64,000 bases of DNA from a virus (IMGVR_UViG_3300028410_000746), one strand, 5' to 3'. Positions 6,092-61,164 are shown, counted from the first letter of the stretch. Notes: generated by a model not told the origin, from the sequence alone. Numbers and translations: made by a program.

Positions 6092-6901
6092 TCAGACCGA
6101 CTCGGCCTCGTAGCGGCCGTTGCCCATGTTGCGAATGACGTCTCGGCTGGTCTGGGGTATCTCGACCAGGATCGAACGAACATAGTTGCTGCGGTTGTAC
6201 TCATCGTCATAGTAGTAGTCGTCGTCAAACGAGCTACGCGCCTCCTTGTAGACGTCGACACGCACGACATCACCCGCCTCAACCCGACGGAGCACCTCTT
6301 CAAGGCCACCGCGACGAACCGAAGGTGCGCCCTTGAGCGCATCCCAGCCTCGGAAGGCCTCAGCCGCATGCGTGTAGTCCGCGCCGCGCAGCTTCTCCTT
6401 CTGGAGAACGTAGTACACGAACTTGGCTGCATGACTCGCACCCGCCATGCGTACAGACGCCTCGCGCCAGCCGTCTCGCGTCTTCTCGATCTTGCCCTTG
6501 CTCGTCATGGGTATTTCGACCGTAATGTTCTGCTTGAGATCACCACGCACCATCTCATCCTCATCCTCATCGTACTCACTGAAGTACACGAACACGTCCA
6601 CCACCGTACCCGGAGAAGCCGAGGTGAGCGCCTCATCCAGGGGCTCAATGTCGGTGATGCCGTTCATAGACGACATGTTACGCTTCCAGGAGTCCCAGTC
6701 CTTGTAGACGATGGCCTCGTGAAGGTACTTCTTGCCCGACGCGCGCTCCTTGCGTAGAGCTTGCCGAACGATCTTGGCTGCGTACGAAGCAGCAGCGGCA
6801 GTACGCGTAGACGCCAGGGAGGCGATCACAGGCTTGAGGTGAGGACGCAGCTCAGGCTTGGTTTTGCCGAGGCGAATGAGACGGGCTTTGAGATCAGACA
6901 T
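6092..6901 (-). CDS. leader-tagged putative virion protein with a tandem internal duplication
   Basis: Starts MSDLKARLIRLGKTKPELRPHLKPVIASL; two similar segments (GTVVDVFVY..NITVEIPMTS / GDVVRVDVY..SILVEIPQTS). Confidence 0.7.
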   Translation of the reverse strand: MSDLKARLIRLGKTKPELRPHLKPVIASLASTRTAAAASYAAKIVRQALRKERASGKKYLHEAIVYKDWDSWKRNMSSMNGITDIEPLDEALTSASPGTVVDVFVYFSEYDEDEDEMVRGDLKQNITVEIPMTSKGKIEKTRDGWREASVRMAGASHAAKFVYYVLQKEKLRGADYTHAAEAFRGWDALKGAPSVRRGGLEEVLRRVEAGDVVRVDVYKEARSSFDDDYYYDDEYNRSNYVRSILVEIPQTSRDVIRNMGNGRYEAESV

Positions 6902-6947
6902 GGCGTACGTGCTCCGGGATAGAAGAAGGTATACACCTTCCCCCTGT

Positions 6948-6961
6948 ATAGACGAGTTACC
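6948..6961 (-). promoter_or_regulatory. putative late-promoter motif GGTAACTCGTCTAT
   Basis: 47 nt upstream of ATG 6901. Confidence 0.4.
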
Positions 6962-6966
6962 GCACA

Positions 6967-7137
6967 TCACCACCGAAAGCGAAGGGTGCCCATGAGATAC
7001 GAATACAGGAGCGGGCTCACGTAACACACCAACGCCAGCCATCGGTCGACCTGGAAGTACGGTGCAAAGCCTACAAACACTACGCCCGATACCAGCATCA
7101 ACACGTACACTGCACGTCGGAGATGAGTAAGAGTCAT
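6967..7137 (-). CDS. small two-TM membrane protein
   Basis: MTLTHLRRAVYVLMLVSGVVFVGFAPYFQVDRWLALVCYVSPLLYSYLMGTLRFRW; GGAGAGG RBS. Confidence 0.5.
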   Translation of the reverse strand: MTLTHLRRAVYVLMLVSGVVFVGFAPYFQVDRWLALVCYVSPLLYSYLMGTLRFRW

Positions 7138-7221
7138 GAAACCTCTCCAGGTAAAGGTAGACGAAACATCCCCGCTTGCGCGAAGAGTTGACACGGGGCA
7201 CACGTTTTGCTGTACCACGCC

Positions 7222-7791
7222 TCACCCCGGAGAGTCGCAACCGTCAAGGGGTTTCGATCTTTGCAGGAGACCCAACACCTGCTGCTCCCTCAAGATCTCC
7301 GCTTCCTCGTCCTCTTCGGGAAGCCCACCCTCCAGGATGCCCACCAGCTCGAAGATGCCATGCGGGTCGAACTCGCCCGTACTTGCGTCGAGGACCCAGG
7401 ACCTACCCCCGAGTAGATTCTCAGGGCATGTATGCTCCTCGACGTAGTAACGCATGTCACTGAGGCGCTCTTCAGCGTTCGCGGCGCGCCCGTAATCCAG
7501 GGTCTCGCGTGCGAGGACGAAATGCCCGGCTCGGATAACCTGCGTCAACTGGGACGCCTTGGTGCCCGTGGTAACCTCGACCACCTCCTCCCCCAGGATC
7601 TTCCCGCTCACGCTTACGAGACAGTTATCGCAGTACCAAGGGCCAAATCGACGCACCTGCGTAGAGTCCGCATCAAAGAGGTGGTCGACCGTACTCATGT
7701 CCTCACCGCAGTCCGGGCAGCACAAGAGCGTGCGAGTGTCTTTTCGTGTGTATGACACAGTGTCTCCGTCATAAAAATACCTCCGTAACAT
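7222..7791 (-). CDS. Zn-ribbon hypothetical protein
   Basis: CPDC...CDNC pair; 189 aa; start uncertain. Confidence 0.6.
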   Translation of the reverse strand: MLRRYFYDGDTVSYTRKDTRTLLCCPDCGEDMSTVDHLFDADSTQVRRFGPWYCDNCLVSVSGKILGEEVVEVTTGTKASQLTQVIRAGHFVLARETLDYGRAANAEERLSDMRYYVEEHTCPENLLGGRSWVLDASTGEFDPHGIFELVGILEGGLPEEDEEAEILREQQVLGLLQRSKPLDGCDSPG

Positions 7792-7800
7792 ACGGAGGTA
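7773..7800 (-). terminator. intrinsic terminator closing the mini-CRISPR transcript
   Basis: Perfect 10-bp stem TACCTCCGTA-TGT-TACGGAGGTA followed by TTTTT. Confidence 0.65.
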
Positions 7801-7804
7801 ACCC

Positions 7805-7834
7805 AGGGTACCACGAGAGAGTGAAGCCCGTCAA
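7805..7834 (-). promoter_or_regulatory. sigma70-like promoter
   Basis: TTGACG-N18-TACCCT with upstream TG (extended -10). Confidence 0.5.
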
Positions 7835-8001
7835 GGGTCCGAAGACCTGACAAGCTCCCGGCGCCGTCTCCCCTACTCCTGAAGGTCACCCCCCACAGGG
7901 ACATCACAGTGTAACTCGCCCGGCTCCATCGAACGCTTATGCCCAAAGGCCACGAAAGGCACGGAGTACATCAGGGTCTCGCCCATCCCATTATAATGAA
8001 T

Positions 8002-8090
8002 GGGACATCCCCGCTCGCGCGGGGAACACTATACAGTGCGTGGAGTGGGCGGCGTCAAGGGCGGGACATCCCCGCTCGCGCGGGGAACAC
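8002..8090 (-). CRISPR. orphan type I-E mini-array (2 repeats, 1 spacer)
   Basis: Two identical 28-nt repeats GTGTTCCCCGCGCGAGCGGGGATGTCCC (8063-8090, 8002-8029), 61-nt period, palindromic CCCCGC/GCGGGG stem; resembles the E. coli-type I-E repeat GTGTTCCCCGCGCCAGCGGGGATAAACCG. Confidence 0.85.
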
Positions 8091-8189
8091 TCTTCAAATG
8101 TTCAAGCCTTCGGAAGTGTACCTAACCCCCTGTATTCGCTCAGGAATCCTGTTGGCATGGGGTGCGCCGTTTTGCTTTACCAACTCTTA
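8091..8189 (-). promoter_or_regulatory. CRISPR leader-like sequence
   Basis: AT-richer non-coding stretch 5' of the first repeat; ends AACATTTGAAGA-repeat; contains GAGTTGGTAAAG, similar to GTTGGTAGA in I-E leaders. Confidence 0.55.
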
Positions 8190-8228
8190 CCCTGTGGTAT
8201 ACCCCTGTGGTATACCCCTGTGGTACAC
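8190..8228. repeat. 3 x 13-bp tandem repeat CCCTGTGGTA(T/C)AC
   Basis: Units 8190-8202, 8203-8215, 8216-8228; contains GGTATACC palindromes. Confidence 0.9.
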
Positions 8229-8248
8229 CTCTCCGACTCATGAGAAGG

Positions 8249-8277
8249 ACCCTACCTCAAGAGAAGGGGGACGTCAA
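8249..8277 (-). promoter_or_regulatory. sigma70-like promoter driving the mini-CRISPR unit
   Basis: TTGACG-N17-TAGGGT pointing toward the leader and array. Confidence 0.55.
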
Positions 8278-8304
8278 GCCTCTGTTGCCAAAAACTCTCC
8301 CAGG

Positions 8305-8329
8305 CGCAGGCGGACGACGCCCGCCTGCG
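8305..8329 (-). terminator. probable terminator after the split neck gene
   Basis: 9-bp stem CGCAGGCGG/CCGCCTGCG; T-run a few nt downstream. Confidence 0.4.
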
Positions 8330-8353
8330 TCTGGATCTCACCCTCCCACAGGG

Positions 8354-9001
8354 TCAGATTCCCATGAATTTACGGGGGGTTAGCGTACCGTTACCTGTAA
8401 TCGGACCAAAACTCGACCTCACGCCCAGGCCATAGCGGCTCTGTTTCAGGCCACGCATGTACTTGACCGTACGAGCCTTGCCGTCGGTCATCATCTTCTC
8501 GAACTGCTGCTCGGCGTTGCCCTTCAAGGACTCGTACTTGGAACTGCGCTCGATGTCCAGATTGATACCGCCAATGGAGTACGAGTTATGCGCCAGGATG
8601 CCGTTGGTGAGTACGAAGTTCTCATCTCCAGGCACACTCAAGTCATAGGTGTATACACGAGCAAGGGCTTCCGTGTGCGCCGTCAAACGAGATCCCGAAG
8701 CCTGAGAAGAACCCTCCACACATACCGCCAAGGCATCCCCTACCTTGAGATCCTGAGCCAAAGCTTCACGTACCGCCCCATCTGGCCGGTACTCAAAGAC
8801 CGAGTGATCCCCCGTACACGTCACAACCCTGCCCTGCGCATCCTCCAGCCGCACCATCGGCTTGTGTGGTGTATGGTGACGCATCACATCAGAGACCCGA
8901 GACCAACGTACACGCCCCGTAGAAGTCTCGACGCTACGAACCTCCAAAGAACCCTCTCGCAAGGCGTTCAGGAGCCACTCTCGCTCATTATCGCTCAACA
9001 T
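8354..9001 (-). CDS. split intein C-fragment (139 aa) plus C-extein (76 aa) of a putative neck protein
   Basis: Block B TCTGDH, block F YDLSVPGDENF, block G LAHN followed by Ser+1 (codon 8582-8584); extein SYSIGGINLDIERSSKY... Confidence 0.85.
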   Translation of the reverse strand: MLSDNEREWLLNALREGSLEVRSVETSTGRVRWSRVSDVMRHHTPHKPMVRLEDAQGRVVTCTGDHSVFEYRPDGAVREALAQDLKVGDALAVCVEGSSQASGSRLTAHTEALARVYTYDLSVPGDENFVLTNGILAHNSYSIGGINLDIERSSKYESLKGNAEQQFEKMMTDGKARTVKYMRGLKQSRYGLGVRSSFGPITGNGTLTPRKFMGI

Positions 9002-9939
9002 ACCTGCACCTTATTGAAGAATCGTATAGCCCGGTCCAAACACCCGTCGTAATCGCGCTGCAACTCATGCTCCCACAGCACCAACACCTCCCAACCACCT
9101 CGCGCAAGGTACGCCAACTTGGCGAGGTCTCTTCTGCGATTGGAGGGAGGCCCCTCCAGACCACATAACAAACAGGAGTGCCAGTATCAGCCATGTATCT
9201 CCAACACCTTGCGCATCTCCGGCTGCACCTCATCACAGGTGTAGTACCCAATAGCGTACTCCGTCTCCAAGTCCTGCACCCCATTGCGAACCAATGCCGC
9301 CTTAAAGTTCAGATGAAGCTGTGAGGTGGCCTGAATAAACGTGCGCGCGTGCGCGGCTGACTGTCGAGACTGCTCCGGGTGTGACGCATGCCAGGACAAG
9401 ACAGCCTCGCGCAAATCACCGCCCTCCTGCCACCGCTCCAGGGATTGAGCGGATACGGCCTGCCGCCGCCCCTCCGTCTGGTTCAATGCGATGAACTCAG
9501 CCCTGCGCGTACCCTCTTGCATCCGCTCCCGCGAAGTCTGAGCAATCCGCAGGCGAGTGTGTACCCCTTCAGGAGACTGAAAATGCTCTAACATGGCCCG
9601 TGACTGGTGAGCCTTCTGTTCTGGGCTCTTCCGTCGACGTACAGTAGTCGTAGCACACGCCAGAGGCGCTTTCGGGTACTTCGTACGATACCCGTCCAAA
9701 TCAAGCGAGGCGCATGCCTGCAAGTGTAGGGATGTAATCGCAGCCACCCAGGCCCCACAACAACGACACACTACGTAATGCGTACCCTCCACCAACGCGT
9801 CTAGCGACGCCACAGACACACACGTTCGGCGCCCGGCCTTACGCGCTTGAACGTCACCGCTCTCGATCAAGGTAACCAAATGCCGTGCGTTCAGTCCATG
9901 CCTGAGTTGCGCCTGTCGTTTTGATATCCACTCACTCAT
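8995..9939 (-). pseudogene. Vsr-like homing endonuclease with an in-frame TGA at 9187-9189 (nonsense, readthrough or Sec)
   Basis: ATG 9939 overlaps the IntN stop; HTH, CxxC Zn finger, then ETEY..CDE..VLEIHG*YWHSC..RRDLAKLAYLARGGWEVLVLWEHE; the frame continues 64 codons to a TGA overlapping the ATG of IntC. Confidence 0.75.
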
Positions 9940-10702
9940 GAGCCTCAGCTTCCACCTGGAGGGCATACAGCTCTTCCATCGACACCTGAATCTCCTGCCC
10001 TCCAGACACACGTACCGTAACCAAGGTCTCCCCGGCAAGCGAGAATTCGTCCGCAACCCAATTGAACGTGAGCGCCATCGCAGCCTGAGCCATGGCCCCC
10101 GTGATGATCCACACGATCCAATTTCGCTGAGCGGACACCATCATGTCCATGCTCAGGTAACCCGTAGCCGGGGGGTAGGAGTTGATGAGCATGGTCGCCT
10201 GATCCATGTACTCAAGCAGCTCCTCGTCCTCCCAGATGTAGGCGAACACGCGATTGAACTGGTTCACGGTCCCCGACGAGGTGGGAGGCCTGAAGTGGTA
10301 GTTGCGGTCAGGGTTGTTGTCCCTCAAACGGATGCGGATGCGGCGGATCATATCGAGCTGCGTCGCCGTGTAACGCGTCGTCAGGAGCTGGGAGGGTTCC
10401 ACGATCTGGAACTCTTGAAGGAGCGTGTTCTCAGGATCACCCGACAGCTCCACGAGGGTCCAACGAATACGATAGAGACCGAACGCTACGAACTCGGGCA
10501 CCTGGAAGTGGGCGTAGTATTGACCCACGCCCACGCGCACGGGCACGTGAGCCGGAGGTCCAATGAGGACCTCGCTGCCCGTCGTGACGTCGTAGAGCGC
10601 GTATGTGATGGAGAACGGGTCGACAGGCACGTCCAAGCTGTCCAGAACCTCGATGGCGAGGTCCGTAGGCGTCGTGATAGACCCTCGTGTCAGCTCAAGC
10701 AT
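9932..10702 (-). CDS. N-extein (220 aa) of a putative neck/head-tail protein plus split intein N-fragment (36 aa)
   Basis: ...FNWVADEF|SLAGETLVTVRVSGGQEIQVSMEELY: intein block A starting with Ser at 10042; joined exteins read ADEF-SYSIGG. Confidence 0.8.
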   Translation of the reverse strand: MLELTRGSITTPTDLAIEVLDSLDVPVDPFSITYALYDVTTGSEVLIGPPAHVPVRVGVGQYYAHFQVPEFVAFGLYRIRWTLVELSGDPENTLLQEFQIVEPSQLLTTRYTATQLDMIRRIRIRLRDNNPDRNYHFRPPTSSGTVNQFNRVFAYIWEDEELLEYMDQATMLINSYPPATGYLSMDMMVSAQRNWIVWIITGAMAQAAMALTFNWVADEFSLAGETLVTVRVSGGQEIQVSMEELYALQVEAEAHE

Positions 10703-10726
10703 GCGAACTCCGGGAAAGAAGGGGAA

Positions 10727-10747: not shown

Positions 10748-10761
10748 CCCTCGCGCGGCAC

Positions 10762-11925
10762 TCAGAAGTGCTCACGGAGGAAGTTGGAGAACGTCCACGC
10801 GACCTCTTCAAGATCGGACGGAAGGTCCTCCAGCATACGATAATGTGTACGGTCTTCGAGGCCTTCCACGAGGCTCTCAGCCGTGGAAGCGAGGTCCTCA
10901 CTCATCTTGACAACCTTGGCCAAAGACGACTTGGAGAGGGCGGAGTAGGCTCCGCGACGGAGAAGGTCGAGCCCTCGCATGAGGTCCTTGACGCCATCGA
11001 CATCACGCTCAAGCTTCTTGAGGTCCCGGCCATAAGCCTTCAAGATCCGGACCAAGGTGCCCTCGACGACATCCTCGTACGCGCCCTGAATGCGGGACTC
11101 CTTCTCAGCCTCTACCGATGCCGAGAAGTCGTTCTGCATCAAGGTCTGGATTCGATCGAAGGCGCGCTTGACCTCGGCAGTCTTGGCGACCGCCTTGAGA
11201 GCCTTGGAGGGGTCCGAGAACATGGGGCTGAACTCGCGCGGAGTGCCTCCATCACCGGAACACTCCATGTAGACCTCATAGGAGTACGTGCCCATCTTCT
11301 CCAGCATCTCCTCGACGAAGAGCGGAGCGGACGCGTCCATGTCAACGACGTCAGCCGGCTTGGGAGTCACAGGCACGAGGTCCAGCTCAGGAGCAGCCTG
11401 ATCACGAGGGTTGAGGAGAGCGTCTTCCAGGCCTCGCTGGTTCTGACGCAGGCTCTCAGCGCGATCACGCTGGGCCTGCTGATCCTGCTTCGTGACGAAC
11501 GGATGCCCCTTGAGGTAATAATTGTCCCATGCCACCATGTCCGCATTGGCAGGATCGAGAGCCATCTCACGGAGCACGAGCTGCACGCGGTTGGCGAAAT
11601 CCTGGAAGGCCTGAAGCGTGCTCCGGCTCACGTCCCCCGTGAACCCCTTGCGGTACTCGTCCGGGAAGTTGTTCTGGAACTCCAGGTCGAGGAGACCTTC
11701 CACAAGCTGCCCACTGAGGCCGGGCCCCATATCCCCACGCACGTCTGCGCTGTACGCCACACGAAGCGCTCCGTACGCGCTAGCGTGCAGCCTTCGACGC
11801 TGGGCCGAACGAGTAAGCACCTCCTGACGAGTCACCGTCAGGGAGGCGATCACCGGCTTGAGGTGTGCACGCAGCTTCGGAGTTGAGCTGCCAATGCGAA
11901 TGAGACGTTGCTTTAGAGTGCGCAT
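10762..11925 (-). CDS. leader-tagged putative virion protein
   Basis: Starts MRTLKQRLIRIGSSTPKLRAHLKPVIASL; 387 aa, helical. Confidence 0.75.
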   Translation of the reverse strand: MRTLKQRLIRIGSSTPKLRAHLKPVIASLTVTRQEVLTRSAQRRRLHASAYGALRVAYSADVRGDMGPGLSGQLVEGLLDLEFQNNFPDEYRKGFTGDVSRSTLQAFQDFANRVQLVLREMALDPANADMVAWDNYYLKGHPFVTKQDQQAQRDRAESLRQNQRGLEDALLNPRDQAAPELDLVPVTPKPADVVDMDASAPLFVEEMLEKMGTYSYEVYMECSGDGGTPREFSPMFSDPSKALKAVAKTAEVKRAFDRIQTLMQNDFSASVEAEKESRIQGAYEDVVEGTLVRILKAYGRDLKKLERDVDGVKDLMRGLDLLRRGAYSALSKSSLAKVVKMSEDLASTAESLVEGLEDRTHYRMLEDLPSDLEEVAWTFSNFLREHF

Positions 11926-11937
11926 GTGGGAAATCCT

Positions 11938-12195: not shown

Positions 12196-12657
12196 TCAGA
12201 TGTAGCGTACGGTCAACTTGGAGCCCACGTACTGACGCACGATGGCCTGAATCTCCTCATCGGACACGACCCCAGACACGGGAGCGAATGCGAAGGACTC
12301 GTCCAGGAACACCTTACCATTGTAGGCCGACACCACCCCGGAGTGTATATCATCAGGAGAGACCCTACGCCCGGAAGCACGAGACAACGCCGTCAAGATG
12401 TTGGCCGCCACGCCTCGCAGCTCCCGGCCACGCACGTTCACGAGCTGGTAATCCACCTCCGCGCCAAAGTCATGACGTATGAGCAATGAGACGCTATAGC
12501 CCCCATCACGTGCCGACAGACTACGAGAGAGCGTCAGGGCCGCCGTCGTCGATCCCTGAGCCTGCTTATGCAGGGAGGCGATCACAGGTTTGAGGTCCGC
12601 ACGAAGTTCAGGCTTGGCGGTCCCCATACGAATCAGTTCGGCTTTGAGATCGGACAT
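12196..12657 (-). CDS. leader-tagged putative virion protein
   Basis: Starts MSDLKAELIRMGTAKPELRADLKPVIASL; GAGGG RBS. Confidence 0.75.
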   Translation of the reverse strand: MSDLKAELIRMGTAKPELRADLKPVIASLHKQAQGSTTAALTLSRSLSARDGGYSVSLLIRHDFGAEVDYQLVNVRGRELRGVAANILTALSRASGRRVSPDDIHSGVVSAYNGKVFLDESFAFAPVSGVVSDEEIQAIVRQYVGSKLTVRYI

Positions 12658-18115: not shown

Positions 18116-19094
18116 CAGCAGCCAACATCGCGGCCGCTCTTGAGACCTTGGCTGCCGGGGTCTCTTCACCCAGCGCAACCAGAAGCTCCGCGACCTGCTC
18201 AAGCACCGCGACGAAGGCTTCGTGCGTCACCAGATCCTCCGCCAACCTGACGTCGAGGGCCACGGACAACTGGAAGAGCCGGGTGAGGGCGGGCATCATC
18301 TGGGGATACGGAACGTGGGCGCGCTTACGGGTATCCTGAGCCGCGAAGACCATCGCCTCGCGCACCAGCGTCCCCTCATCGTAGAAGTGCATGGAGTCCA
18401 GGTAGTTGAGCAGAACCGACATGTACCCCGTATGAAACAGCGAGAGCGCGCCAGCCGGGAACCCTCTCTTCTGAGCCACCATACGGCTCATCTGGACCAC
18501 TTCACCCACCAACCGCATGTCCGAGCCAGAACACGCACGCTTGGCCATCCCAGCGGTAAGCGTACCCATGTCCGGAGCATGAGGCGTGAAGGGCCTCACG
18601 AGACGATTGCCTCCAAGGAAGTCACCGTCCAGGTACTCAATCCAGCCAAACGTCTTGGAGGCGTCCGACAGCATCGAATCCTCCCAGGACTCCTGCGTGA
18701 ACTTCGAGTGGCTCATGCCGATCCCATTGGTGAATCCCGCGTTGACGTCAATGCGGATCACGCCGTCCACATCATGCGCCGAAGGCGCCACGGTAAAGGT
18801 CGCCCACAAGCGGGGGGCCATCGGCTCCGAGTTGGCGCGCAGTACGATGTAGCGCACCGTGACTGTGTAATGAGCCGAAGACGACTTCGAGACGTCAACC
18901 TCCTCGAAGTCGACCTTGCGACCCAGGGCTTGGTACAGGTAACGCTCATACTCCGCACGCAGTCCTCGGAGGGTAGAGCCAAGGCTATCGGCTCGTTGGG
19001 AGACCTTCTGAGCCTTGGCGCGCTCCTCAGGGCCCAAACCAAGCATGGAAGCCCGGCGCACCGTCTGGACAATCAGCTCTCTCGTAGACATCAC
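18111..19094 (-). CDS. hypothetical protein
   Basis: 327 aa coupled ORF. Confidence 0.65.
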   Translation of the reverse strand: MMSTRELIVQTVRRASMLGLGPEERAKAQKVSQRADSLGSTLRGLRAEYERYLYQALGRKVDFEEVDVSKSSSAHYTVTVRYIVLRANSEPMAPRLWATFTVAPSAHDVDGVIRIDVNAGFTNGIGMSHSKFTQESWEDSMLSDASKTFGWIEYLDGDFLGGNRLVRPFTPHAPDMGTLTAGMAKRACSGSDMRLVGEVVQMSRMVAQKRGFPAGALSLFHTGYMSVLLNYLDSMHFYDEGTLVREAMVFAAQDTRKRAHVPYPQMMPALTRLFQLSVALDVRLAEDLVTHEAFVAVLEQVAELLVALGEETPAAKVSRAAAMLAAE

Positions 19095-19921
19095 GCCGAC
19101 ACTCCCGCAACGCCCTTGAGACGCTGACCCAGCAAATAGAGGTGAGTCTCGTGCGTAGACGAGACAGCTCCCAAGAGATCCTCCATGCCCATCGACATAC
19201 GATCTCCCAGAGCATCCCGAACCGCATTGATATGCTCGATCACGACCATCTCTGCGATAAAAGATCGCTCCGGGTATCCAAGGCGAGCCTGCGACTCCAG
19301 GAAGGTGACAAAGCCTGCCACACGTTGAGCCTGATCAACCGAGTCAATCTCCAGGCCATACACGCCCATCAACTTCTCTGCGAGCGCGTCAATCTCAGGA
19401 CCTACGGCCTCATACATACGCTCAAAGAGCAGGTGATCCTGATACGACGTGTCTCCCGATGAACCCCAATGCGCGTTTTGGTGAAGCTGTTGGACCGCCC
19501 GCACCAATGCGAGGAGGTCCAACAGCAATCGGTGAGGCTCCTGTTCTGAGACGTTCGCACGTCGGATGTTCTTGGCCGTGACGTACGCAGCCACCGCCCG
19601 ATCAATGTCATTGCCCGGTGCCTGCGACAGCTCCTTGGACAGAGAAGCACTCACCCGCGAGGGGAGACCTCGGAAGGAATACGTCACACCGCTCGACGGA
19701 GCCATCGGCCCCTCGTAAGAAGTCACCTGACCTCTGGTCGTGTGCGACTCAACAGCACCTTCGGGCCCTCGAACCTCCACCACCGCATCAAACGTCGCGG
19801 TGAGGGCGTAGGAATGACGACGGTGCAGCTCTCCGAGGTACGTGTACTCAGCATTACGGACCGACACGTCCTGGATCGTATACAGCGTGCCCAATTGAGA
19901 GCGGGAGATGAAGGTGCGCAT
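19091..19921 (-). CDS. protein with a C-terminal Dps/ferritin-like domain
   Basis: HQNAHW...DHLLFERMYE...EIDALAEK ferroxidase pattern; C-terminal ETHLYLL. Confidence 0.75.
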   Translation of the reverse strand: MRTFISRSQLGTLYTIQDVSVRNAEYTYLGELHRRHSYALTATFDAVVEVRGPEGAVESHTTRGQVTSYEGPMAPSSGVTYSFRGLPSRVSASLSKELSQAPGNDIDRAVAAYVTAKNIRRANVSEQEPHRLLLDLLALVRAVQQLHQNAHWGSSGDTSYQDHLLFERMYEAVGPEIDALAEKLMGVYGLEIDSVDQAQRVAGFVTFLESQARLGYPERSFIAEMVVIEHINAVRDALGDRMSMGMEDLLGAVSSTHETHLYLLGQRLKGVAGVSA

Positions 19922-20814: not shown

Positions 20815-21123
20815 TCAGATCGACGTGAGGACGCTCTTGAGGCCTCGCATCTCACTGCTCAAGTTGGCGTACTCCTCATTGAGTGAGCGAATGCCCTGGT
20901 CACGGGCACGATCCGTCGTCGCACGTGCGATCGTGACCTGAGCACGGTAGATCGCACTGGCGATGTCCTTGAGTGCGTCAGGGATCAACTCCAGGCGCTC
21001 CATAGGGTCGCCGTAAGCGATACGCGTATCAGACGCCAGAGAGGCGATCACGGGCTTAAGATGGGGGCGCAGCTCCGGCTTGGCGTTGCCGAGACGGATA
21101 AGACGGGCTTTGAGATCAGACAT
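20815..21123 (-). CDS. leader-tagged small helical protein
   Basis: Starts MSDLKARLIRLGNAKPELRPHLKPVIASL; directly downstream of the MCP. Confidence 0.75.
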   Translation of the reverse strand: MSDLKARLIRLGNAKPELRPHLKPVIASLASDTRIAYGDPMERLELIPDALKDIASAIYRAQVTIARATTDRARDQGIRSLNEEYANLSSEMRGLKSVLTSI

Positions 21124-21239: not shown

Positions 21240-22118
21240 TCAGCGGCGCACGACCAGACGGACAAGTCCGCGCGGGTTGTGGCAGCCAATGCCCAGGTTC
21301 TCGAAGATCGAGAAGCCGATCTGGCGGGCAGCGGGGTTATCCGCCGAGAGAACCGTCAGCTCAGTGCGAACGGGGATGCGGCCGAACATCTCGGGCTCGG
21401 TGCAGAGGTACACGAAGCCAGCCGGGACGAGACGCGAGACGATGATCTGCGCGCCCCAGAGGGTGGACTGGAGACCCGTGTTCAGAAGGACAGCCTGCGA
21501 CTCGATGTCGAGGATCTCGCGACCGAACTTACGGATGTCCGAGTAGTCCTTGGCGTTCATGTAGATGCGCGCCACGCGAAGGTCATGCTTCTCGATCTCG
21601 GAGAACGCGTCCGCGAGGACGGCCTGCGAGATGGGAGCCACGACCTGGAGGTCGGGGTTGACCGTACCGGGAACCGAATCGAACCCGTTCTGAGCCACAG
21701 CGTCGAGGATAGCGAAGACGCGCTCGTCCTCGGCAGCCTGGATCTGGCTCTTACCGAGCTGCTGGGCACGCTCGATGAGGTCGAAGCGGCGCTCCTTGAT
21801 CTGCGTGATCGGGATGGTCGGAAGCGACGCGATCTCGAACAGGGGGATGATCACACGACGAGGCTTCTGGACAGCCTGGATGTTCTCACCCTCCTCGCCT
21901 ACGACGTACGCGGTGACATCCGGGTCCTTGTCGTAGATGGGAAGTGCGCCGTCGGGAAGCTGCTCGACGAGGAAGGTCTTTCGACCGACCGACGAGTAGT
22001 CGCGACGAAGGCGGAGGGGCTGAATCATCGAGTTGGCGAGACGCGCGCGTCCTGCCGCAGTCTTGATGAATCGGCCGATGAGCTGCGACTTGGCAGCGGG
22101 GCTGAGCTGGTTGGACAT
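21240..22118 (-). CDS. major capsid protein (HK97 fold)
   Basis: 292 aa from MSNQLS; position after protease, scaffold and decoration genes; RLANSMIQPL..LFEIASLP..AEDERVF pattern resembles (from memory, unverified) Bxz1-type myovirus MCPs. Confidence 0.85.
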   Translation of the reverse strand: MSNQLSPAAKSQLIGRFIKTAAGRARLANSMIQPLRLRRDYSSVGRKTFLVEQLPDGALPIYDKDPDVTAYVVGEEGENIQAVQKPRRVIIPLFEIASLPTIPITQIKERRFDLIERAQQLGKSQIQAAEDERVFAILDAVAQNGFDSVPGTVNPDLQVVAPISQAVLADAFSEIEKHDLRVARIYMNAKDYSDIRKFGREILDIESQAVLLNTGLQSTLWGAQIIVSRLVPAGFVYLCTEPEMFGRIPVRTELTVLSADNPAARQIGFSIFENLGIGCHNPRGLVRLVVRR

Positions 22119-22177: not shown

Positions 22178-22843
22178 TCAGATGCGCTGGTCGATCACGA
22201 GTTCAGCGTGGACAGCATCGGGCACGATCGTGATCACGCCGATTCGAGTAGCTCCCGCGAGAACCTCGTCGCCGTTGGCGACCTCGTGAATGTCCGCATC
22301 CTCACTACCCGCAGCCGAAACCGCCGAGGTGAGGTACCCGTTGACACTCGCGTAAACCCACAGGCCGTTCTCGTAGATCAGCGGATCGCCCGCCGCCCCC
22401 GAGGTGGTGCCGGCAAGGCCGGGCGCCAGAACAGCGGTCTCGTAGAGACGGAGACCCATGGTGCCCTGAGCCGACACGTAGGTGCCCTTGCCCGAAGCCA
22501 CCGCAGGGGTGTTCTCGTAGGCGCTGCCCGCTGCGTCGTTGACGAAGAGTCCAACGGGACGGATCGCACCAGCGGCCGCCGCTGCGCCCGTGGGGCCGCC
22601 AACGAAGCCGTTACCGGCTGCCGGACGCGTGAACGCTATCGAACCGCCGAGGACGCCGCGCTTGGGCGCGGGGGGAAGAGTGGTCGAAACCGTACCCGCC
22701 GCCGAAACGATGGGGGGGTTCTGCTGCTGGAACGCATCCAAGGTCAGCTCGGCCGCAAACGTGTTGCGGATACCGACGTAAAGAATGCGAAGGGCGGAAG
22801 ACGACTCGGTGAAGTCGCCGCTTGCCTGTCCGGGGAGTGCCAT
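22178..22843 (-). CDS. capsid decoration/cement protein
   Basis: Gly/Ala-rich, PVGLFVNDAAG..YEN..GKGTYVSAQG; lies between scaffold and MCP. Confidence 0.65.
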   Translation of the reverse strand: MALPGQASGDFTESSSALRILYVGIRNTFAAELTLDAFQQQNPPIVSAAGTVSTTLPPAPKRGVLGGSIAFTRPAAGNGFVGGPTGAAAAAGAIRPVGLFVNDAAGSAYENTPAVASGKGTYVSAQGTMGLRLYETAVLAPGLAGTTSGAAGDPLIYENGLWVYASVNGYLTSAVSAAGSEDADIHEVANGDEVLAGATRIGVITIVPDAVHAELVIDQRI

Positions 22844-22926: not shown

Positions 22927-24345
<1,419 letters not shown>

Positions 24346-42180: not shown

Positions 42181-43547
42181 GTCTCCTCGTCAAGCAAAAC
42201 ACTCAAAGAACGTTGAATGCCTTTGGAGGTCGCAACGCGCGTCCTCGGCATGTCAAAACGCTTCTGCACTTGATCTTCATGAGCATCCTTGACCGGCAGC
42301 CCCCTGGAGGCCTTGGCACCGTGCTTCATGACCTGACCCGCCCATTTTCGATTGTCGACTTCGGCATGCTGGGCGGAGCCCTTCGAGCTTGGAGACGGGC
42401 TCTTACGTTGAGAGGCCGGAACCTCCGCAGCCGCCGCTTGAATCACCACCATTTGACCTCCAGTCTGTCCGAGTGTACCAATCAGAAGGGCTTGACGCAA
42501 ATAGAGCAGCTCACACATCAAGCTGGTGTCGTCGGTGACCGGGTTCTTCAGGAGGTGCCGGGCGAGGTGCAACAAGGTCTCTCCCTCATAGGTCTGAGAC
42601 ACTCGCTTGAGTGAGCGACGGTCCATGACACCCAAACCAGTAGTGATACCATTCGCGAGCCGATACGCAGCCATCCCAACGTCGAGGACCCCTGCATGCA
42701 CGCTGGCAGCAGAAGACGTTGCCAACGCCGCCTCGACGGCCGTGTTGATCGCCGTCGCGTCCTGCGACAGGGACTCCAAGACCGCGCAGTGGTGATCCAA
42801 CATGCCCAAGCCGAGCTGATCACGCACCGTCGCAGAAGTCACCGCGCCGGCATACGACACGCGCTCCAACGCCGTCACCATGTCCCGCATGTGGCCCCTG
42901 CCAAACTCAAAGATCGTCCCAAGGGCCTCCGGGTCAAAGTCCAGGCCCTCTTGCGTGCATATGTGCGCCAACCGCGTCACGGCTTCATCACGCGTCGGAG
43001 ACAGGACAGAGAAGACCATGGATCGGCCCTTGATCGTGTCGCGCAGCTTGTGCGGCTCCGTCGTACAGAAGAGGCCCACCAAGCGTTTGTCACGCGTACC
43101 GGGGATCGTATCCTCCATCGGCTTGAGCAGCGCATCCATAGCCTGTGCGCTCAAGCGGTGAGCCTCGTCGATCAGGTAGACGATGCGATCACCGGCTCCG
43201 AAGACGTGGTAACCAAGAGCTGCCACGAGCTGACGCACGTTGTCTGCTCCCGAGTGATTGGCGGCGTCCATCTCGCGGAAAGACGGCACATCCGCCTCCG
43301 AGAGCATCGCCTTACAGCTTGAACACGTATCACAAGGAGCTGAGCCCTTGCCGAGCTGCTCACACAACATGGCGCGGGCGAGGATACGCGCCATGGTGGT
43401 CTTACCCGTCCCCGAAGGACCAGCGAACACATAGCTACGCTCGAACACGCCCCCTGACGAGAGCAACGCCTCCAACACCTGGATCGTATTCTTCTGGCCT
43501 GCGACCTCCTCGAAGGTTCTTGGCCGATAGGTGGTGTCAAATCCCAT
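42177..43547 (-). CDS. dnaX: DNA polymerase III gamma/tau clamp loader
   Basis: YRPRTFEEVAGQ, GPSGTGKTT, C..PCDTCSSC, EMDAA, IDEAH. Confidence 0.92.
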   Translation of the reverse strand: MGFDTTYRPRTFEEVAGQKNTIQVLEALLSSGGVFERSYVFAGPSGTGKTTMARILARAMLCEQLGKGSAPCDTCSSCKAMLSEADVPSFREMDAANHSGADNVRQLVAALGYHVFGAGDRIVYLIDEAHRLSAQAMDALLKPMEDTIPGTRDKRLVGLFCTTEPHKLRDTIKGRSMVFSVLSPTRDEAVTRLAHICTQEGLDFDPEALGTIFEFGRGHMRDMVTALERVSYAGAVTSATVRDQLGLGMLDHHCAVLESLSQDATAINTAVEAALATSSAASVHAGVLDVGMAAYRLANGITTGLGVMDRRSLKRVSQTYEGETLLHLARHLLKNPVTDDTSLMCELLYLRQALLIGTLGQTGGQMVVIQAAAAEVPASQRKSPSPSSKGSAQHAEVDNRKWAGQVMKHGAKASRGLPVKDAHEDQVQKRFDMPRTRVATSKGIQRSLSVLLDEET

Positions 43548-52201: not shown

Positions 52202-52204
52202 GAC

Positions 52205-56416: not shown

Positions 56417-57025
56417 TCAAGCGTCTTTGTCCTTAATGTCCTTAAAAGCCACATCCTTGAACGTGCGAGCCACTTCGAGCAGCTCCTTGATCGGCATGCC
56501 GACACGGCGAACGGGCATCCTCATGTCCGGGTCCAGGACGACGCAAGCCGCCCATCGGTGGTGACCGTCCATAATGTAGTGGTCCGAAGACACGATCACG
56601 GGAACCTTGGTCAGGAACGCATCGTCACCGCTGCGGGCGCTGGACACCATCCCCTCTACCTTTTTCGAGCTGATCTCACGCTGAGTCGCGCGGAGATCCC
56701 CTACCGGGAGGCGACCCGACCGGACAACCACTCCCCGGTCACGAAGCATGGCGACGAACACGGGCACACGGCGGGCGTCTATCTGGGGCATCTCCGAACG
56801 GGGAATCCCCAGATGAGCGCGGCAGTGGCCAGTCTCCTCGCACCAGTCTTCCGACGCCGCCATCAAGACGCGCTGCAAGGCTACTGCGCTGGTCCGAACA
56901 CCCTGGACGGACAGATTGGCGTGCGTCACCTCGGTAGGAACCACCGAGGCAATACGAGCGATGTGAGATGTCAGCTCAGGGCGCTGAAGGGCAAGGTTCA
57001 CGAGCTGCTCGTACAAGGTAGGCAT
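56417..57025 (-). CDS. leader-variant-tagged ParB/Srx-like domain protein
   Basis: Starts MPTLYEQLVNLALQRPELTSHI; L.ATQ.EI...PVIVS.D.YIMDGHHRW. Confidence 0.75.
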   Translation of the reverse strand: MPTLYEQLVNLALQRPELTSHIARIASVVPTEVTHANLSVQGVRTSAVALQRVLMAASEDWCEETGHCRAHLGIPRSEMPQIDARRVPVFVAMLRDRGVVVRSGRLPVGDLRATQREISSKKVEGMVSSARSGDDAFLTKVPVIVSSDHYIMDGHHRWAACVVLDPDMRMPVRRVGMPIKELLEVARTFKDVAFKDIKDKDA

Positions 57026-57067
57026 GGTATTCCTTCTCCGGATAGTAGTGGACATACCACGCTCCAT

Positions 57068-57081
57068 ATCGACTGATTAAC
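57068..57081 (-). promoter_or_regulatory. variant of the putative late-promoter motif, GTTAATCAGTCGAT
   Basis: 43 nt upstream of the ParB-like gene. Confidence 0.35.
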
Positions 57082-59245
57082 CCACAAGGTCTCGCAGGCG
57101 CTTGGCGAACTGCGTGTTGCGTCGGGTGACCTCGTTGTTACTGACGGCCTTGACCACGCTCGACCAGTCTCCCAGCATCACTACCTTCGTCTTGGCCCTC
57201 GTGATCGCCGTGTAGAGCAGGTTGCGTTGAAGCTGCACCGAGTAGGAGTCCACGAAGGGCAAGATCACGTAGTCAAACTCCTGACCCTGTGACTTGTGGA
57301 TGGTGATGCAGAAGGCCAGCTTGAGCATCTTGTGCGTCTCTCCGAACTTGACCGGCACGACCTTGGTGTAGCCGTCACGGATGCGGATCATGACCTCCTT
57401 GTTCTTGCCGTCGATGTCCGTGATCGTCCCCTGCTCCCCGTTGTAGACGCCGAGGTCGTAGTCGTTGTTGGTCACGATCACGCGGTCGCCCACGCGCCAC
57501 GTCACCCCCTTACCAACCGAAGCCGTCTTCTGCCCCGTGTCCGGGTTGAGCACCTCTCGGATCGCCTCATTGAGCCTCGTCACCCCCAGCTCTCCCGCCC
57601 ATCGAGGAGACAGCACCTGGAAGGTCTCCCCCCGCTCCGTTGTCCGCTGAAGCTCCTCCACGAGCTTCTTGATCTGGACCTTGATGCGAGCATCCGAGGA
57701 GACCTCACGAAACTCGAAGTCCTTGTGGGACCTCGCAGGGGGCTCCCCCTTGTTGATCCGGTGCGCTCCCAGGATGATGCCCGAGGTCTCACCCTGCCTG
57801 AAGATGCGCGTGAGGTTGACCTGAGGGACGACACCCGAGCGAATCAGCTCGTGAAGGACGTTGCCGGCTCCCACGCTGGGGAGCTGTGCGTGATCCCCCA
57901 CGCAAACCAGGACCGTGCCCGGCTTGAGCGCTCCCAGGAGGCGATAGAGCAGCTCCTGGTCCACCATCGAAAACTCATCCACGAGGACCGCATCCACACT
58001 CAAGGGGTTGTTCGGTCCGTGGGTCCAGGAGTCACCCCGGTACCCAAGGGCCCGGTGAATCGTCGAGGCCGAGAACCCCACCACGGTAGAGAGCTTCTTG
58101 GCCGCGATGCCCGTGGGACTGAGCAACTCTACCCGAAGGTCCGCATCTCGAAAGAGCTTGACGATGGCGCGCGACACGGTGGTCTTACCCGTACCAGGGA
58201 GACCCGTGACCAGCACCACAGGGTGCTCAGCTATCCGCGTCACAGCCTCACGCTGCTGCTCCGAGAGGTTGATCCCCTGGATGCGCTCGTAGTCGTCCAG
58301 AAAGCTCACCGTGTCCACGGACGCCAGGGGAGAGTTCGCCTTGAGCATCTGAACCATGCGATCAGCCGCCTGCGTCTCCACACGGTACAGGTGGCTCAGG
58401 TAGAGACGGGAGCCATCCAGCTCAACGCGTCCTCGACCCTGTAGCTCCTTGATCCCCATGGCCAGCTCCGTCTTGGTGATCGGCCTCCCAAAACCAACGA
58501 GCTTGTCCGCGTGCATGGCCTTGCCCAACTGCGTCTTGATCAGCTCATTGAGCGTCAGGTAGAGGTGACCCTCCGTCTGCGCGACGCGCTCCAGCACGTA
58601 CTCGAAGAGGCCCGCGAGACGAATCGAAGCGCACGGGTCCACACCCATCTGCAACGCCAGACGATCCGCAAGCTGGAACCCCGCGTACGGGACCTCCATG
58701 ATCACGTACGGGTTGGCCTTGAGTCTGTCCAGGGTCTTGGCTCCCCAGAGGTCGTACGCCCCCTTGATCACCTTCTTGGGGATGTCCTTCTGGAGCAGCT
58801 CCACAGCCACGCGACGGTAGTAACGCTGCTCCTGCCAGTTCTCCACCAGCTCCTCGCGCGCGCGCTGCGAGAGTCGAGCAACCTCAACCAACCGCTCGGG
58901 CTCCTCGTCCAAAACACGCAGCGTCTCCCCTCCAAACGTCTCCACCAATCGCTTTGAGAGCACCGGACCGATGAACTGCACGTGCGATTGCAGGTACTCC
59001 ATGAGGCCTCGATCCGTGGTCGGGAGCGACACAGACAGTGACGCCGCCGCAAACGTTGGGCCCCACTTCGTATCCTCCCAGGCACCCTCCAGAGTGACGA
59101 CCTGTCCAGGAGCCGGCGTGTCCACCACGAACGTCCCCTTGACCTTCTTGTTGCGGTGATCGGAGGAGTCCTCCAACAAGAAGATGAAGAAGGTCCCATC
59201 CTCGCTGCGGAAGATGAGCTTCTTGATGAGCCCGGTGAGTTCCAT
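57077..59245 (-). CDS. recD2: RecD2-like SF1B helicase
   Basis: GLPGTGKTT, VDEFSM, GDHAQLPSV, IFRQ, AFCITIHKSQGQE, LLYTAITRAK. Confidence 0.93.
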   Translation of the reverse strand: MELTGLIKKLIFRSEDGTFFIFLLEDSSDHRNKKVKGTFVVDTPAPGQVVTLEGAWEDTKWGPTFAAASLSVSLPTTDRGLMEYLQSHVQFIGPVLSKRLVETFGGETLRVLDEEPERLVEVARLSQRAREELVENWQEQRYYRRVAVELLQKDIPKKVIKGAYDLWGAKTLDRLKANPYVIMEVPYAGFQLADRLALQMGVDPCASIRLAGLFEYVLERVAQTEGHLYLTLNELIKTQLGKAMHADKLVGFGRPITKTELAMGIKELQGRGRVELDGSRLYLSHLYRVETQAADRMVQMLKANSPLASVDTVSFLDDYERIQGINLSEQQREAVTRIAEHPVVLVTGLPGTGKTTVSRAIVKLFRDADLRVELLSPTGIAAKKLSTVVGFSASTIHRALGYRGDSWTHGPNNPLSVDAVLVDEFSMVDQELLYRLLGALKPGTVLVCVGDHAQLPSVGAGNVLHELIRSGVVPQVNLTRIFRQGETSGIILGAHRINKGEPPARSHKDFEFREVSSDARIKVQIKKLVEELQRTTERGETFQVLSPRWAGELGVTRLNEAIREVLNPDTGQKTASVGKGVTWRVGDRVIVTNNDYDLGVYNGEQGTITDIDGKNKEVMIRIRDGYTKVVPVKFGETHKMLKLAFCITIHKSQGQEFDYVILPFVDSYSVQLQRNLLYTAITRAKTKVVMLGDWSSVVKAVSNNEVTRRNTQFAKRLRDLVG

Positions 59246-59285
59246 GTGTAGTCCTTGATTCGTATATCAGTCGTAAGGTCGAGCG

Positions 59286-59903
59286 TCAGTCAAAGCTCAG
59301 GTAGAGCATATCACTCCGATCCGCGCGAAGGTCCAAGCCTACCATAAGACCCGTGAGGGGGACCACAGAAGCGAGCCGCATATCCTCTCGCATTTCGTCC
59401 CACGGACCCAGCCCCTCTTCCGGAAGGACATAGGGGAGGCTATGTGCTGCGACCCCCAGGCCTGCGGATTTGAGCCACCAGAAGACCTCCCGCCTCTTGA
59501 GGTCGGGCATCTCCGAGGCCTCGTGTGCCCAAAAGACGAGGTGACGGCATACGCTCGCCTCCGCTCGGTCCTGAATCGAGAGAAGCCTACGTAGCGTACC
59601 CTCCACCGACTCGCCCTCACTCCTCAGGCGAGCACTGAGACCCACCCGACCCGTCACCACCCCCGTGTACGTCGCTCCGGCACCCGAGAGCTGCCTCGCA
59701 ATGCCCCGAGCCAATACGGCATTCGGAGTCACTACCTGAGACACCGCACCCTGGAGCACGATGGACTTGAGCGCGCCGCTTTCGTAGCGCACGGACATCT
59801 CCAGCCCCTCAATGACGTATACATGCAACAGGGAGCGGCCACGAAGACCGCCCCCCTTGACCACCCACTCCATGAGCTTCTGCTGTACCTGATCTGGCTC
59901 CAT
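59286..59903 (-). CDS. degenerate NAD-dependent DNA ligase adenylation domain
   Basis: VIEGLEMSVRYESGAL aligns with KxDGLAVSLxYENGxL but lacks the catalytic Lys; motif IV LTGLMVG; no OB or BRCT; AGGAGG RBS. Confidence 0.6.
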   Translation of the reverse strand: MEPDQVQQKLMEWVVKGGGLRGRSLLHVYVIEGLEMSVRYESGALKSIVLQGAVSQVVTPNAVLARGIARQLSGAGATYTGVVTGRVGLSARLRSEGESVEGTLRRLLSIQDRAEASVCRHLVFWAHEASEMPDLKRREVFWWLKSAGLGVAAHSLPYVLPEEGLGPWDEMREDMRLASVVPLTGLMVGLDLRADRSDMLYLSFD

Positions 59904-59956
59904 GCGACCTCCTGTGGGGCGTGATCTTACCACAGAGGAGGTCACCGGTCCAGGCA

Positions 59957-60319
59957 CTAAGCCCTCAAGTAGATGTAATCCGGGTCAAGATAGAAGACCT
60001 TGATCTCCTGGACGGCATCAAGCAGCTCCTCCTCGTGATGTGTCAGCCGACCCAAGAGCCCCTCCTCACGAAGATGGCCCGCGTCATAGTCACTGGCGAC
60101 GGTCTGGAGAGCCAGGAGAGGAGTCAGGACACGCGCGCGCGCTTTGGAGAGCGCTGCGTCGGAGAGGTCCAGGGGACCAAACATCTTCGTCAAGAGAGAC
60201 ATGGCGTTGTCCAGGAGCATCCCGAAGTGCCGACCATCTGCGTCAGACCTTCCTCTCAAGACGTCTTGAGCGCGGCGGTGCGCTTGAGCGACCAGGGCAT
60301 CGAAAGCTGGGAGACTCAT
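59957..60319 (-). CDS. helical hypothetical protein
   Basis: 120 aa coupled ORF. Confidence 0.6.
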   Translation of the reverse strand: MSLPAFDALVAQAHRRAQDVLRGRSDADGRHFGMLLDNAMSLLTKMFGPLDLSDAALSKARARVLTPLLALQTVASDYDAGHLREEGLLGRLTHHEEELLDAVQEIKVFYLDPDYIYLRA

Positions 60320-60519
60320 TCCGAACCTTTCGTGTGCGTGGGGATGAGCGAGGACGCGTCCAGGAGGTCCACACAGGTCAACCGAACCTCTCGGTTCTTG
60401 AAGCGGTCCAGCAGCGTCTCCAGGGGGACGAGCCGGCCATCCTGCTCCACGTACCAGTGTCCCTTGGCATTCTTACGCAGAACACCCTCTTCCAGGAACG
60501 AAATCTCCAACAGGTTCAC
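60316..60519 (-). CDS. small hypothetical protein
   Basis: 67 aa coupled ORF. Confidence 0.6.
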   Translation of the reverse strand: MNLLEISFLEEGVLRKNAKGHWYVEQDGRLVPLETLLDRFKNREVRLTCVDLLDASSLIPTHTKGSE

Positions 60520-60522
60520 AGC

Positions 60523-60732
60523 CTACTCCTCTTGTTGGGCTTGGCGCCTCTCCACCACACGCTTGTAGTGCGCGCACTCACGAGAGTCCGGAGCACGCCT
60601 ACACTCGGACTTGTGCTGGATATGATACCACGCATCACACGACGCCGCATGACGATGTGGACACCGGCGCGCATAAGAAGGCGTCGTACACGAGAAGGCC
60701 GCGAGAGCTATGACGGGTATCAGAAACCTCAT
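60523..60732 (-). CDS. small Cys-rich exported/lipoprotein-like peptide
   Basis: MRFLIPVIALAAFSC signal-like N-terminus; four more Cys. Confidence 0.5.
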   Translation of the reverse strand: MRFLIPVIALAAFSCTTPSYARRCPHRHAASCDAWYHIQHKSECRRAPDSRECAHYKRVVERRQAQQEE

Positions 60733-61164
60733 TCAGACCCTTTCGCGGTTCCGCTCAATGGTCTTGGCGAGATCCAGCGCGAGGTGACCGGCGCGGGGGA
60801 ACGGCACGCTTAGGATCTTGTCATAGAAGTTCCCCATGACGACCGTGCCCAGAAGCATACCCTTCTCCTCCTCGAAAGTGACCTCGCAGCGTAGCGAACG
60901 TGGCGAACCGCTACTAAACTCCAGGCGAATCACACAGTAATCAGGTCGCACCTCAATCTTGGGCCGGCTCAACATGCCCTTCACGTTGAGCGCATTGAGT
61001 AGAATACTCGGAAGCTCCGCATAGAGCGCCTCAAGAGCCTTCTCCCAGGGACGGTCGAGTTTCCCCGAAGTCTTGGAGAGGCTGGCAATCACAGGCTTCA
61101 AGTGCGGACGAAGCTCGGGGTTAGATGTACCAAGGCGAATGAGCTGCGTGGCGATGTCAGACAT
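60733..61164 (-). CDS. leader-tagged hypothetical protein
   Basis: Starts MSDIATQLIRLGTSNPELRPHLKPVIASL. Confidence 0.75.
   Translation of the reverse strand: MSDIATQLIRLGTSNPELRPHLKPVIASLSKTSGKLDRPWEKALEALYAELPSILLNALNVKGMLSRPKIEVRPDYCVIRLEFSSGSPRSLRCEVTFEEEKGMLLGTVVMGNFYDKILSVPFPRAGHLALDLAKTIERNRERV

Follow-up and report, generated by a model that had tools for sequence, protein, structure and literature searches.

Otherwise unrelated proteins of an uncultured huge-phage clade share a short terminal peptide that may act as a head-docking tag

The stretch of DNA analysed here (the window, 64,000 nucleotides of the virus IMGVR_UViG_3300028410_000746) forms the latter half of G000, an IMG/VR record of 127.7 kb; it has a GC content of about 60% and carries nearly all of its genes on the minus strand. 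Six of these genes begin with the same 29-residue peptide (one residue shorter in tag E), hereafter the tag. An initial annotation, made from the window alone, had listed six shared N-terminal leaders, and a six-frame motif search combined with profile searches places all of them at the minus-strand starts it gave. Tag A (6812-6901, E = 5e-14) opens a 269-residue protein encoded at 6092-6901, tag B (11836-11925, E = 1e-11) one of 387 residues (10762-11925), tag C (12568-12657, E = 1e-12) one of 153 residues (12196-12657), tag D (21034-21123, E = 1.5e-15) one of 102 residues (20815-21123), tag E (35536-35622, E = 2e-11) one of 107 residues (35299-35622) and tag F (61075-61164, E = 6e-14) one of 143 residues (60733-61164). 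Each has an ATG start with a GGAG-like Shine-Dalgarno sequence at -11 to -14. Among the 2,817 open frames of the 127.7-kb record the six score E = 1e-11 to 1e-23, and a profile built from the six themselves recovers them at 1e-20 to 1e-23 and finds no comparable further match in that record. The gene of tag D adjoins the major capsid gene, directly downstream of it, the gene of tag F lies directly downstream of the ribonucleotide reductase gene, and the large terminase gene is found two genes downstream of the gene of tag E.

Further copies in the window were scored with a broader family profile. One of canonical type (…PELRPHLLPLL…) forms the C-terminus of a 97-residue protein (tag at 26047-26130, gene at 26032-26325, minus strand; E = 1e-8), so that the C-terminal copy suspected in this gene is real. 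The gene lies directly upstream of the prohead protease gene, and its orthologue in locus L082 is likewise C-terminally tagged; a second C-terminal tag is present outside the window (G000 7727-7810, E = 5e-13). The two proposed N-terminal variants fared differently. The one in the 137-residue head-module protein (tag at 26649-26729, gene at 26322-26735, minus strand) is degenerate and weak when taken alone (E = 0.003), but orthologues of this conserved gene in relatives carry clearer tags; the one opening a ParB-like nuclease gene (56972-57025, gene at 56417-57025, minus strand) is marginal and not significant (E = 0.19). With tags also at C-termini, and with two to five copies in some proteins of the wider family, the idea of a purely N-terminal leader has to be abandoned.

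The copies resemble each other as peptides and not as DNA. The copies at 6901 and 21123, which had been described as differing mostly at synonymous positions, are separated by 12 nucleotide differences that amount to 10 synonymous codons and 2 non-synonymous ones; those at 21123 and 61164 differ synonymously in 16 codons and non-synonymously in 7. The similarity ends exactly with the 29 codons, and the 60 nucleotides on each side are about 25% identical in any pair, as in random sequence. Because the differences are mostly synonymous and the flanks random, selection acts on the peptide and not on the DNA. Gene conversion or repeated DNA, considered as a cause of the likeness, is ruled out by the saturated synonymous sites and the random flanks. 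The proteins behind the tag, here called cargo, are indeed unrelated to each other (best BLASTP E = 0.065). The short R/K-x-A that the initial annotation had seen behind the leader recurs as [KR]-x-[AS], 3-14 residues past the tag, in all six window copies, and in the wider family K-x-A-A follows the tag immediately. Cargo A (6092-6901, minus strand) is a tandem duplication of a unit of ~115 residues (36% identity, E = 7e-16), and the ESM Atlas offered nothing usable for cargo A or cargo B.

The tag is a member of a large family. In the wider clade it has the consensus LRSKLIRLAHxNPELRPHLLPLLKxA and the module measures ~26-30 residues, while the window phage and its nearest relatives have the subtype LKARLIRLGxAKPELRPHLKPVIASL. 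In LR745208.1, an uncultured phage of 485 kb and the nearest phage record (terminase 42%, capsid protein 76% identical), there are 11 copies of a related peptide that starts M-T-T-L-R-S-K-L-I-R-L-A-H. Scanning IMG/VR with a pattern of the canonical subtype returned 64 loci, many of them on contigs of 100-536 kb, and the same scan with the pattern of the window's own subtype gave no confirmable match. Among 54 distinct tagged IMG/VR proteins the tag is mostly very N-terminal, with a few cases at the C-terminus or behind another domain. In a set of 1.84 billion representative proteins, a family profile built from 59 tags matches 4,375 protein clusters at E ≤ 1e-3 and 681 at E ≤ 1e-10; among relatives of the window phage the counts are 17 tags in the complete genome G001 and 11 in LR745208.1. 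A word-indexed homologue search limited to the tag region gave 19 proteins, in which a single Pfam domain was recognised. The clusters that were looked up are all metagenomic and without names, and their contexts are huge-phage contigs. A similar pattern scan of one genome each of 185,579 prokaryotic species gave two matches, both on small contigs of metagenome-assembled genomes. The tag family is phage-specific, with hardly any occurrence in cellular genomes. The tag matches no Pfam family, and a full-text literature search for the motif strings found nothing relevant; the suggestion that this is a candidate undescribed module, and not a known standalone domain, thus holds up.

AlphaFold2 (AF2) predicts the tag as two short helices joined at a conserved N-P or K-P turn. 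The helices are H6-16/H18-29 and H37-50/H52-62 in the two-tag mini-protein P0134 and H3-13/H17-27 in the 137-residue protein starting at 26735, so that both models contain a terminal helix-turn-helix of about 30 residues. In the latter model the predicted local distance difference test score (pLDDT) is 52-60 in the tag vs about 80-87 in the alpha/beta body, and because of this lower score the tag looks like a separate appendage. Neither model has a Foldseek match in the PDB at E ≤ 0.001. The helix-turn-helix shape, several conserved basic residues, the tandem tags of some proteins and one sub-threshold match to the Pfam family LRV_2 on the C-terminal copy could be taken as signs of a minimal DNA-binding helix-turn-helix, or of one LRV/HEAT-like repeat unit, without any targeting role. 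This seems highly improbable to us, since about 90 scanned proteins contain no Pfam helix-turn-helix or repeat family above threshold and since 26 residues with a proline-kinked second helix are too few; standalone helix-turn-helix DNA-binding domains are larger than that. LRV_2 membership itself was rejected (16.7 bits vs a cut-off of 27, E = 0.0075, on the C-terminal copy alone, with the other scanned proteins unmatched). Two further candidates were discarded: a Sec or Tat signal, as charged residues break every hydrophobic stretch and there is no RR-x-F-L-K, and a relative of the C-terminal tail of the prohead protease, to which there is no similarity, all scores being negative. The tag is quite probably a shared protein-binding module, because it is too small to fold alone, prefers termini, is independent of position, is selected as a peptide and is subtype-specific in six paralogous positions of a single genome.

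The best-scoring clusters have two to five tags each, often one per end, joined by lysine/glutamate-rich, low-complexity linkers. Six of these multi-tag disordered proteins (P0001, P0005, P0007, P0028, P0036 and P0104) share further short motifs, namely C-x10-C (…CEKLPEG.MRDNC…), …DEPYMKG.FT… and …ADPTKNMSPED…; motifs of the MRDNC and PYMKG types are absent from G000, the 127.7-kb record. On the P0017 contig (European Nucleotide Archive, 51 kb), a phage chaperonin (Cpn60) gene is immediately followed by one for a 258-residue protein that is tagged at both ends. Proteins with several tags raise the question as to whether the tag binds itself, its hairpins bundling so that multi-tag proteins assemble into a viral factory, a core aggregate or some other network or condensate that has single-tag proteins as clients. 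The make-up of the top 171 family members, most of which have two to five tags with charged low-complexity linkers and 44 of which are tagged at both ends, would fit such a self-associating sticker. So would P0134 (63 residues) and P0104 (86 residues), which consist of little beyond two tags and a linker, and the AF2 model of P0134, four helices with a pLDDT of 78 and a predicted template modelling score (pTM) of 0.57, is compatible with two hairpins packing together. However, that pTM is weak for a 63-residue helical protein modelled from 14 aligned rows, Foldseek finds no structural analogue in the PDB, and the six window copies keep their subtype-specific second helix despite saturated synonymous change, which a shared receptor would explain at least equally well. 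We regard a self-associating tag as rather unlikely, and note that self-association could coexist with head loading, as in the cargo cores of microcompartments. A more elaborate form is unlikely too: a sticker-and-spacer system in which multi-tag disordered proteins and single-tag clients would build a protein phase (the inner core of a giant capsid or a cytoplasmic body for assembly), with the tags later excised at the K-x-A-S sites beside them, which the scaffold has as well. If true, it would amount to a new programmable cargo-loading principle, spread over thousands of protein families in a globally distributed huge-phage clade.

Where the tagged genes lie bears on where their products may go. 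The head module of the window is delimited by the genes for the large terminase (32707-34692, minus strand) and the portal (30132-32084, minus strand). From the portal it runs through proteins of 710 and 144 residues, the N-tagged 137-residue protein and the C-tagged 97-residue protein to a prohead maturation protease of 507 residues (24505-26028, minus strand; phrog_18299, 4e-14), and continues with a scaffold-like protein that is very acidic and repeats the motif K-[ED]-A-S (22927-24345, minus strand), a 221-residue protein (22178-22843, minus strand) upstream of the capsid gene, at the position taken in phage G by the decoration protein, the HK97-type major capsid protein of 292 residues (21240-22118, minus strand) and the N-tagged 102-residue protein. 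The scaffold-like gene occupies the position of T4 gp22, and we take the order as a whole to mirror T4 genes 20, 67, 68, 21, 22 and 23; gp67 and gp68 of T4 are small prohead-core proteins. The window is collinear with the head/structural block of G001, a complete 437-kb relative with direct terminal repeats and a 92% identical capsid protein, and seven of the nine window tags fall between 6.9 and 35.6 kb. Of the 17 tags of G001, 13 are gathered around the capsid gene at 216.7-246.1 kb (binomial p about 1e-12), in a block that comprises terminase, portal, protease, scaffold and capsid genes together with downstream structural-looking genes. Elsewhere, a 134-residue tagged protein is encoded between the scaffold and decoration genes of LR745208.1, one of 105 residues between the protease and scaffold genes of locus L083, and one of 127 residues, with a tag at both ends, between the protease and scaffold genes of L098. 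The protease gene itself has about 940-955 codons in L098 (626-3433) and L107 (697-3561) vs 505 as a rule, a length that points to a fusion or to a large insertion.

Such a location, in a structural block and between the capsid gene and downstream structural-looking genes, would also suit a tag that anchors exchangeable proteins to the virion exterior (capsid surface, neck or tail), in the way that receptor-binding or decoration proteins are held by a conserved N-terminal adaptor peptide, and the weak beta-sandwich or Fn3-like structural neighbours of cargo A point the same way. These neighbours have template modelling (TM) scores below 0.4, however, and neither the cargo domains described below (ADP-ribosyltransferase, ParB-like nuclease, WGR) nor the lysine/glutamate-rich disordered multi-tag proteins are typical of surface fibres. 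An external anchor is in our view distinctly unlikely.

Cargo is exchanged while tags remain in place. The cargo of tags A and C is replaced in G001, with the tags kept at the same loci between conserved flanking genes; the match between the tag C gene and G001 is confined to the tag. The tag B gene has a 47% identical orthologue in G001, and in the orthologue of the tag D gene the tag is 72% and the cargo 29% identical. Of the orthologous pairs, one (D) has preserved the tag much better than the cargo, and three have preserved the two equally. A variable island at 5000-9900 of the window corresponds to 216.3-219.3 kb of G001, between conserved genes at 3633-4991 and 9932-10702; it holds one tagged gene, a gene for 189 residues and a repeat unit in the window, and four tagged genes in G001. 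The repeat unit (8002-8096, plus-strand coordinates), which thus sits where cargo genes differ from G001, consists of two 34-nucleotide direct repeats, 94% identical and spaced by 61 nucleotides, and resembles a mini-CRISPR.

A Pfam domain was recognised in just 4 of the 54 tagged IMG/VR proteins: ART-PolyVal in L044 (47.6 bits, cut-off 31.2), WGR in L052, DUF7007 and DUF7717. The gene behind the marginal tag at 57025 encodes a ParB-like nuclease domain (phrog_2859, 4e-29). Both ADP-ribosyltransferase and ParB-like nuclease domains are characteristic of proteins that are delivered together with the phage DNA, and Alt of T4 is a packaged ADP-ribosyltransferase. The polyvalent proteins of Iyer et al. 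(2017) are said to include both ART-PolyVal and ParB-like nuclease domains in their repertoire. The few effector-like cargo domains suggest, in small numbers, a fit with delivered proteins.

The tag might instead bind a partner outside the virion, such as a chaperone of the phage or the host, a protease (as a degron), a polymerase, a clamp or a membrane or secretion factor. Its occurrence at either terminus is typical of degrons and chaperone tags, the double-tagged gene of the P0017 contig lies beside a phage chaperonin gene, and some tagged genes are found among replication genes, as is tag F beside ribonucleotide reductase. Against this, the chaperonin neighbourhood is single and anecdotal, the tag has no Sec/Tat-like hydrophobic core, and the strong structural-block clustering in G001 would be unexpected; a non-virion partner strikes us as improbable. 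Recognisable genes of the window include those for ribonucleotide reductase (61253-64000), a RecD/Dda-like helicase (57077-59245) and a clamp loader (42177-43547). Searches of Pfam and PHROGs with all tagged proteins and about 30 neighbouring genes assigned most of the other genes to no family. One neighbour without a tag, a 276-residue protein three genes downstream of the capsid gene (19091-19921, minus strand), has a region resembling Dps/starvation-inducible DNA-binding proteins (residues 132-201; phrog_3636 at 1e-5, phrog_858 at 3e-4).

The 127.7-kb record has a CheckV completeness of about 29%, and a capsid protein identical to that of the window is present on a 373-kb contig, so the record is a fragment of a huge phage. 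The 292-residue capsid protein is of HK97 type without a delta domain. Proteins 75-92% identical to it are found at 539 loci of IMG/VR and in 2,022 protein clusters, among which tag-bearing contigs recur; terminase and protease are far less conserved in the same relatives (about 40-68% identical). By capsid protein, Tunturiibacter phage Tunturi_5 (47%) and Bacillus phage G (39%) come closest among cultured phages, and they have the gene order protease-scaffold-decoration-capsid in common with the clade. The search that finds the 17 tags of G001 and the 11 of LR745208.1 finds none at E ≤ 1 in either cultured phage, and the head loci of both contain no homologues of the tagged proteins. The tag is confined to a single uncultured clade of huge phages, whose HK97 capsid protein is phage-G-like and highly conserved, and its absence from the nearest cultured phages marks it as an invention of this clade.

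The residues flanking the tags follow a pattern of their own. Internal and C-terminal tags are preceded by G-K-x-A-S, and K-x-A-A comes after the tags, such that K[EDKQT][AS][SA] brackets the tags of multi-tag proteins. The same motif occurs 38 times in nine scaffold orthologues vs 3.8 times expected from shuffles, and in the 127.7-kb record the scaffold is the only protein with at least two of them. The scaffold-like protein of the window (22927-24345) is extremely acidic and contains a series of short amphipathic helices, each introduced by K-[ED]-A-S, between runs of Asp/Glu; in its orthologues the low-complexity parts diverge fast, whereas the K-x-A-S-type motif shows a tenfold enrichment. 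A cleavage motif of the prohead protease is common to the scaffold, core and internal proteins of T4 and of the phiKZ-like giants (PMC5694885); a motif present on scaffold and tag flanks alike is therefore what would be expected of a cleavable tag. K-x-A-(S/A) could equally be a helix-capping box of lysine/glutamate-rich linkers.

Putting these data together, we tentatively favour the reading that the tag is a portable docking tag which recruits cargo into the assembling head, a real possibility that falls somewhat short of probable. A destination in the head is favoured by the gene positions in the subclade, the single head type, the T-even-like turnover of cargo and the few effector-like domains. 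The tag, a small amphipathic helix-turn-helix that is no domain on its own, would bind one common head-assembly partner, for which the core of the prohead scaffold or the inner face of the shell are candidates, and this binding would bring otherwise unrelated client proteins into the head during assembly. The disordered multi-tag proteins would act as multivalent linkers or as core material, and the flanking K-x-A-(S/A), shared with the scaffold, might be prohead-protease sites. We infer, then, a binding peptide, the head interior as its destination and flanks that may be sites of the protease. The portable zip code for head loading that the initial annotation had put forward stands as far as portability, selection on the peptide, phage specificity and clustering in the head block of the subclade are concerned; its likeness to the capsid-targeting sequence (CTS) of phage T4 does not extend to sequence.

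Several observations weigh against this docking tag. Only in this subclade do the tagged genes cluster strongly near the head genes: a tag is found within about 6 kb at only 15 of 80 capsid loci, only 2 of the 11 tagged genes of LR745208.1 lie within 10 kb of its capsid gene, and two tagged genes of the window sit among replication genes. Cultured phages with the tag were not found (Tunturi_5 and phage G were searched). Two phages whose capsid proteins are 76% identical differ in the second helix of the tag, and this makes the capsid protein a less favoured candidate for a co-evolving receptor. Nearly all cargo is of unknown function, so that its effector flavour comes from a few cases. As to cleavage, the would-be P1 residue is E in about 21% of cases and otherwise K, S, Q or T, the window's own tags have no K-E-A after them and no Glu of a T4-like site, and a simple N-terminal propeptide that is removed would not account for the C-terminal and internal copies.

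Whatever its destination, a phage-only, position-independent module that spans 4,375 clusters and has no Pfam name is an annotation gap worth closing. If the tag is an address for head loading, it would allow the packaged, and possibly injected, proteins of uncultured phages of 300-600 kb to be listed from sequence only, in a clade where almost all genes otherwise lack annotation. Such an address would also hint at how very large capsids are organised from inside, via multi-tag disordered linkers, and foreign proteins could be loaded into large capsids by means of a natural handle of 28 residues.

The closest functional parallel is the CTS of T4, which Mullaney and Black reportedly described in 1996 for the internal proteins IPI-III and Alt. 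As with that system, a short terminal peptide is all that diverse, fast-changing proteins have in common, their genes are partly tied to a head module with a prohead protease and an acidic scaffold, and a possible protease motif marks the junction of tag and cargo, where the canonical L-K-E|A fits the (L/I)-x-E rule of T4. The differences are equally clear: the present tag has 26-30 residues in a helix-turn-helix and bears no resemblance to MKTYQEFIAE-like sequences, it is also found at C-termini and in two to five copies per protein, and the subtype of the window is without the Glu. The CTS of T4 measures 10-20 residues (PMC5694885), and the internal proteins that carry it are a fast-turning-over set in T-even phages (PMC3012670). 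Since membership of the CTS family fails on sequence and on length, the analogy with T4 is one of function only. In DarB of phage P1, about 30 N-terminal residues suffice for capsid targeting (PMC9024508). This is comparable to the tag in length, but that signal is known on one protein and not on a family. We know of no sequence relation between the two. Outside phage heads, the encapsulation peptides of microcompartments and the cargo-loading peptides of encapsulins are short amphipathic helical tags at protein termini, joined to their cargo by linkers, and CsoS2-like disordered scaffolds with many motifs are multivalent organisers of a protein shell; encapsulin shells have the HK97 fold. Tags at either terminus, disordered multi-motif proteins and, for encapsulins, an HK97-fold shell are thus likenesses to the present family, whereas those systems are cellular compartments of unrelated sequence and shell binding by the phage tag is only putative. 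Finally, the scaffolding protein of P22 contacts the coat through a C-terminal basic helix-turn-helix, which is likewise small, terminal and basic, but it belongs to one scaffold protein, while the tag described here is portable and found on many.

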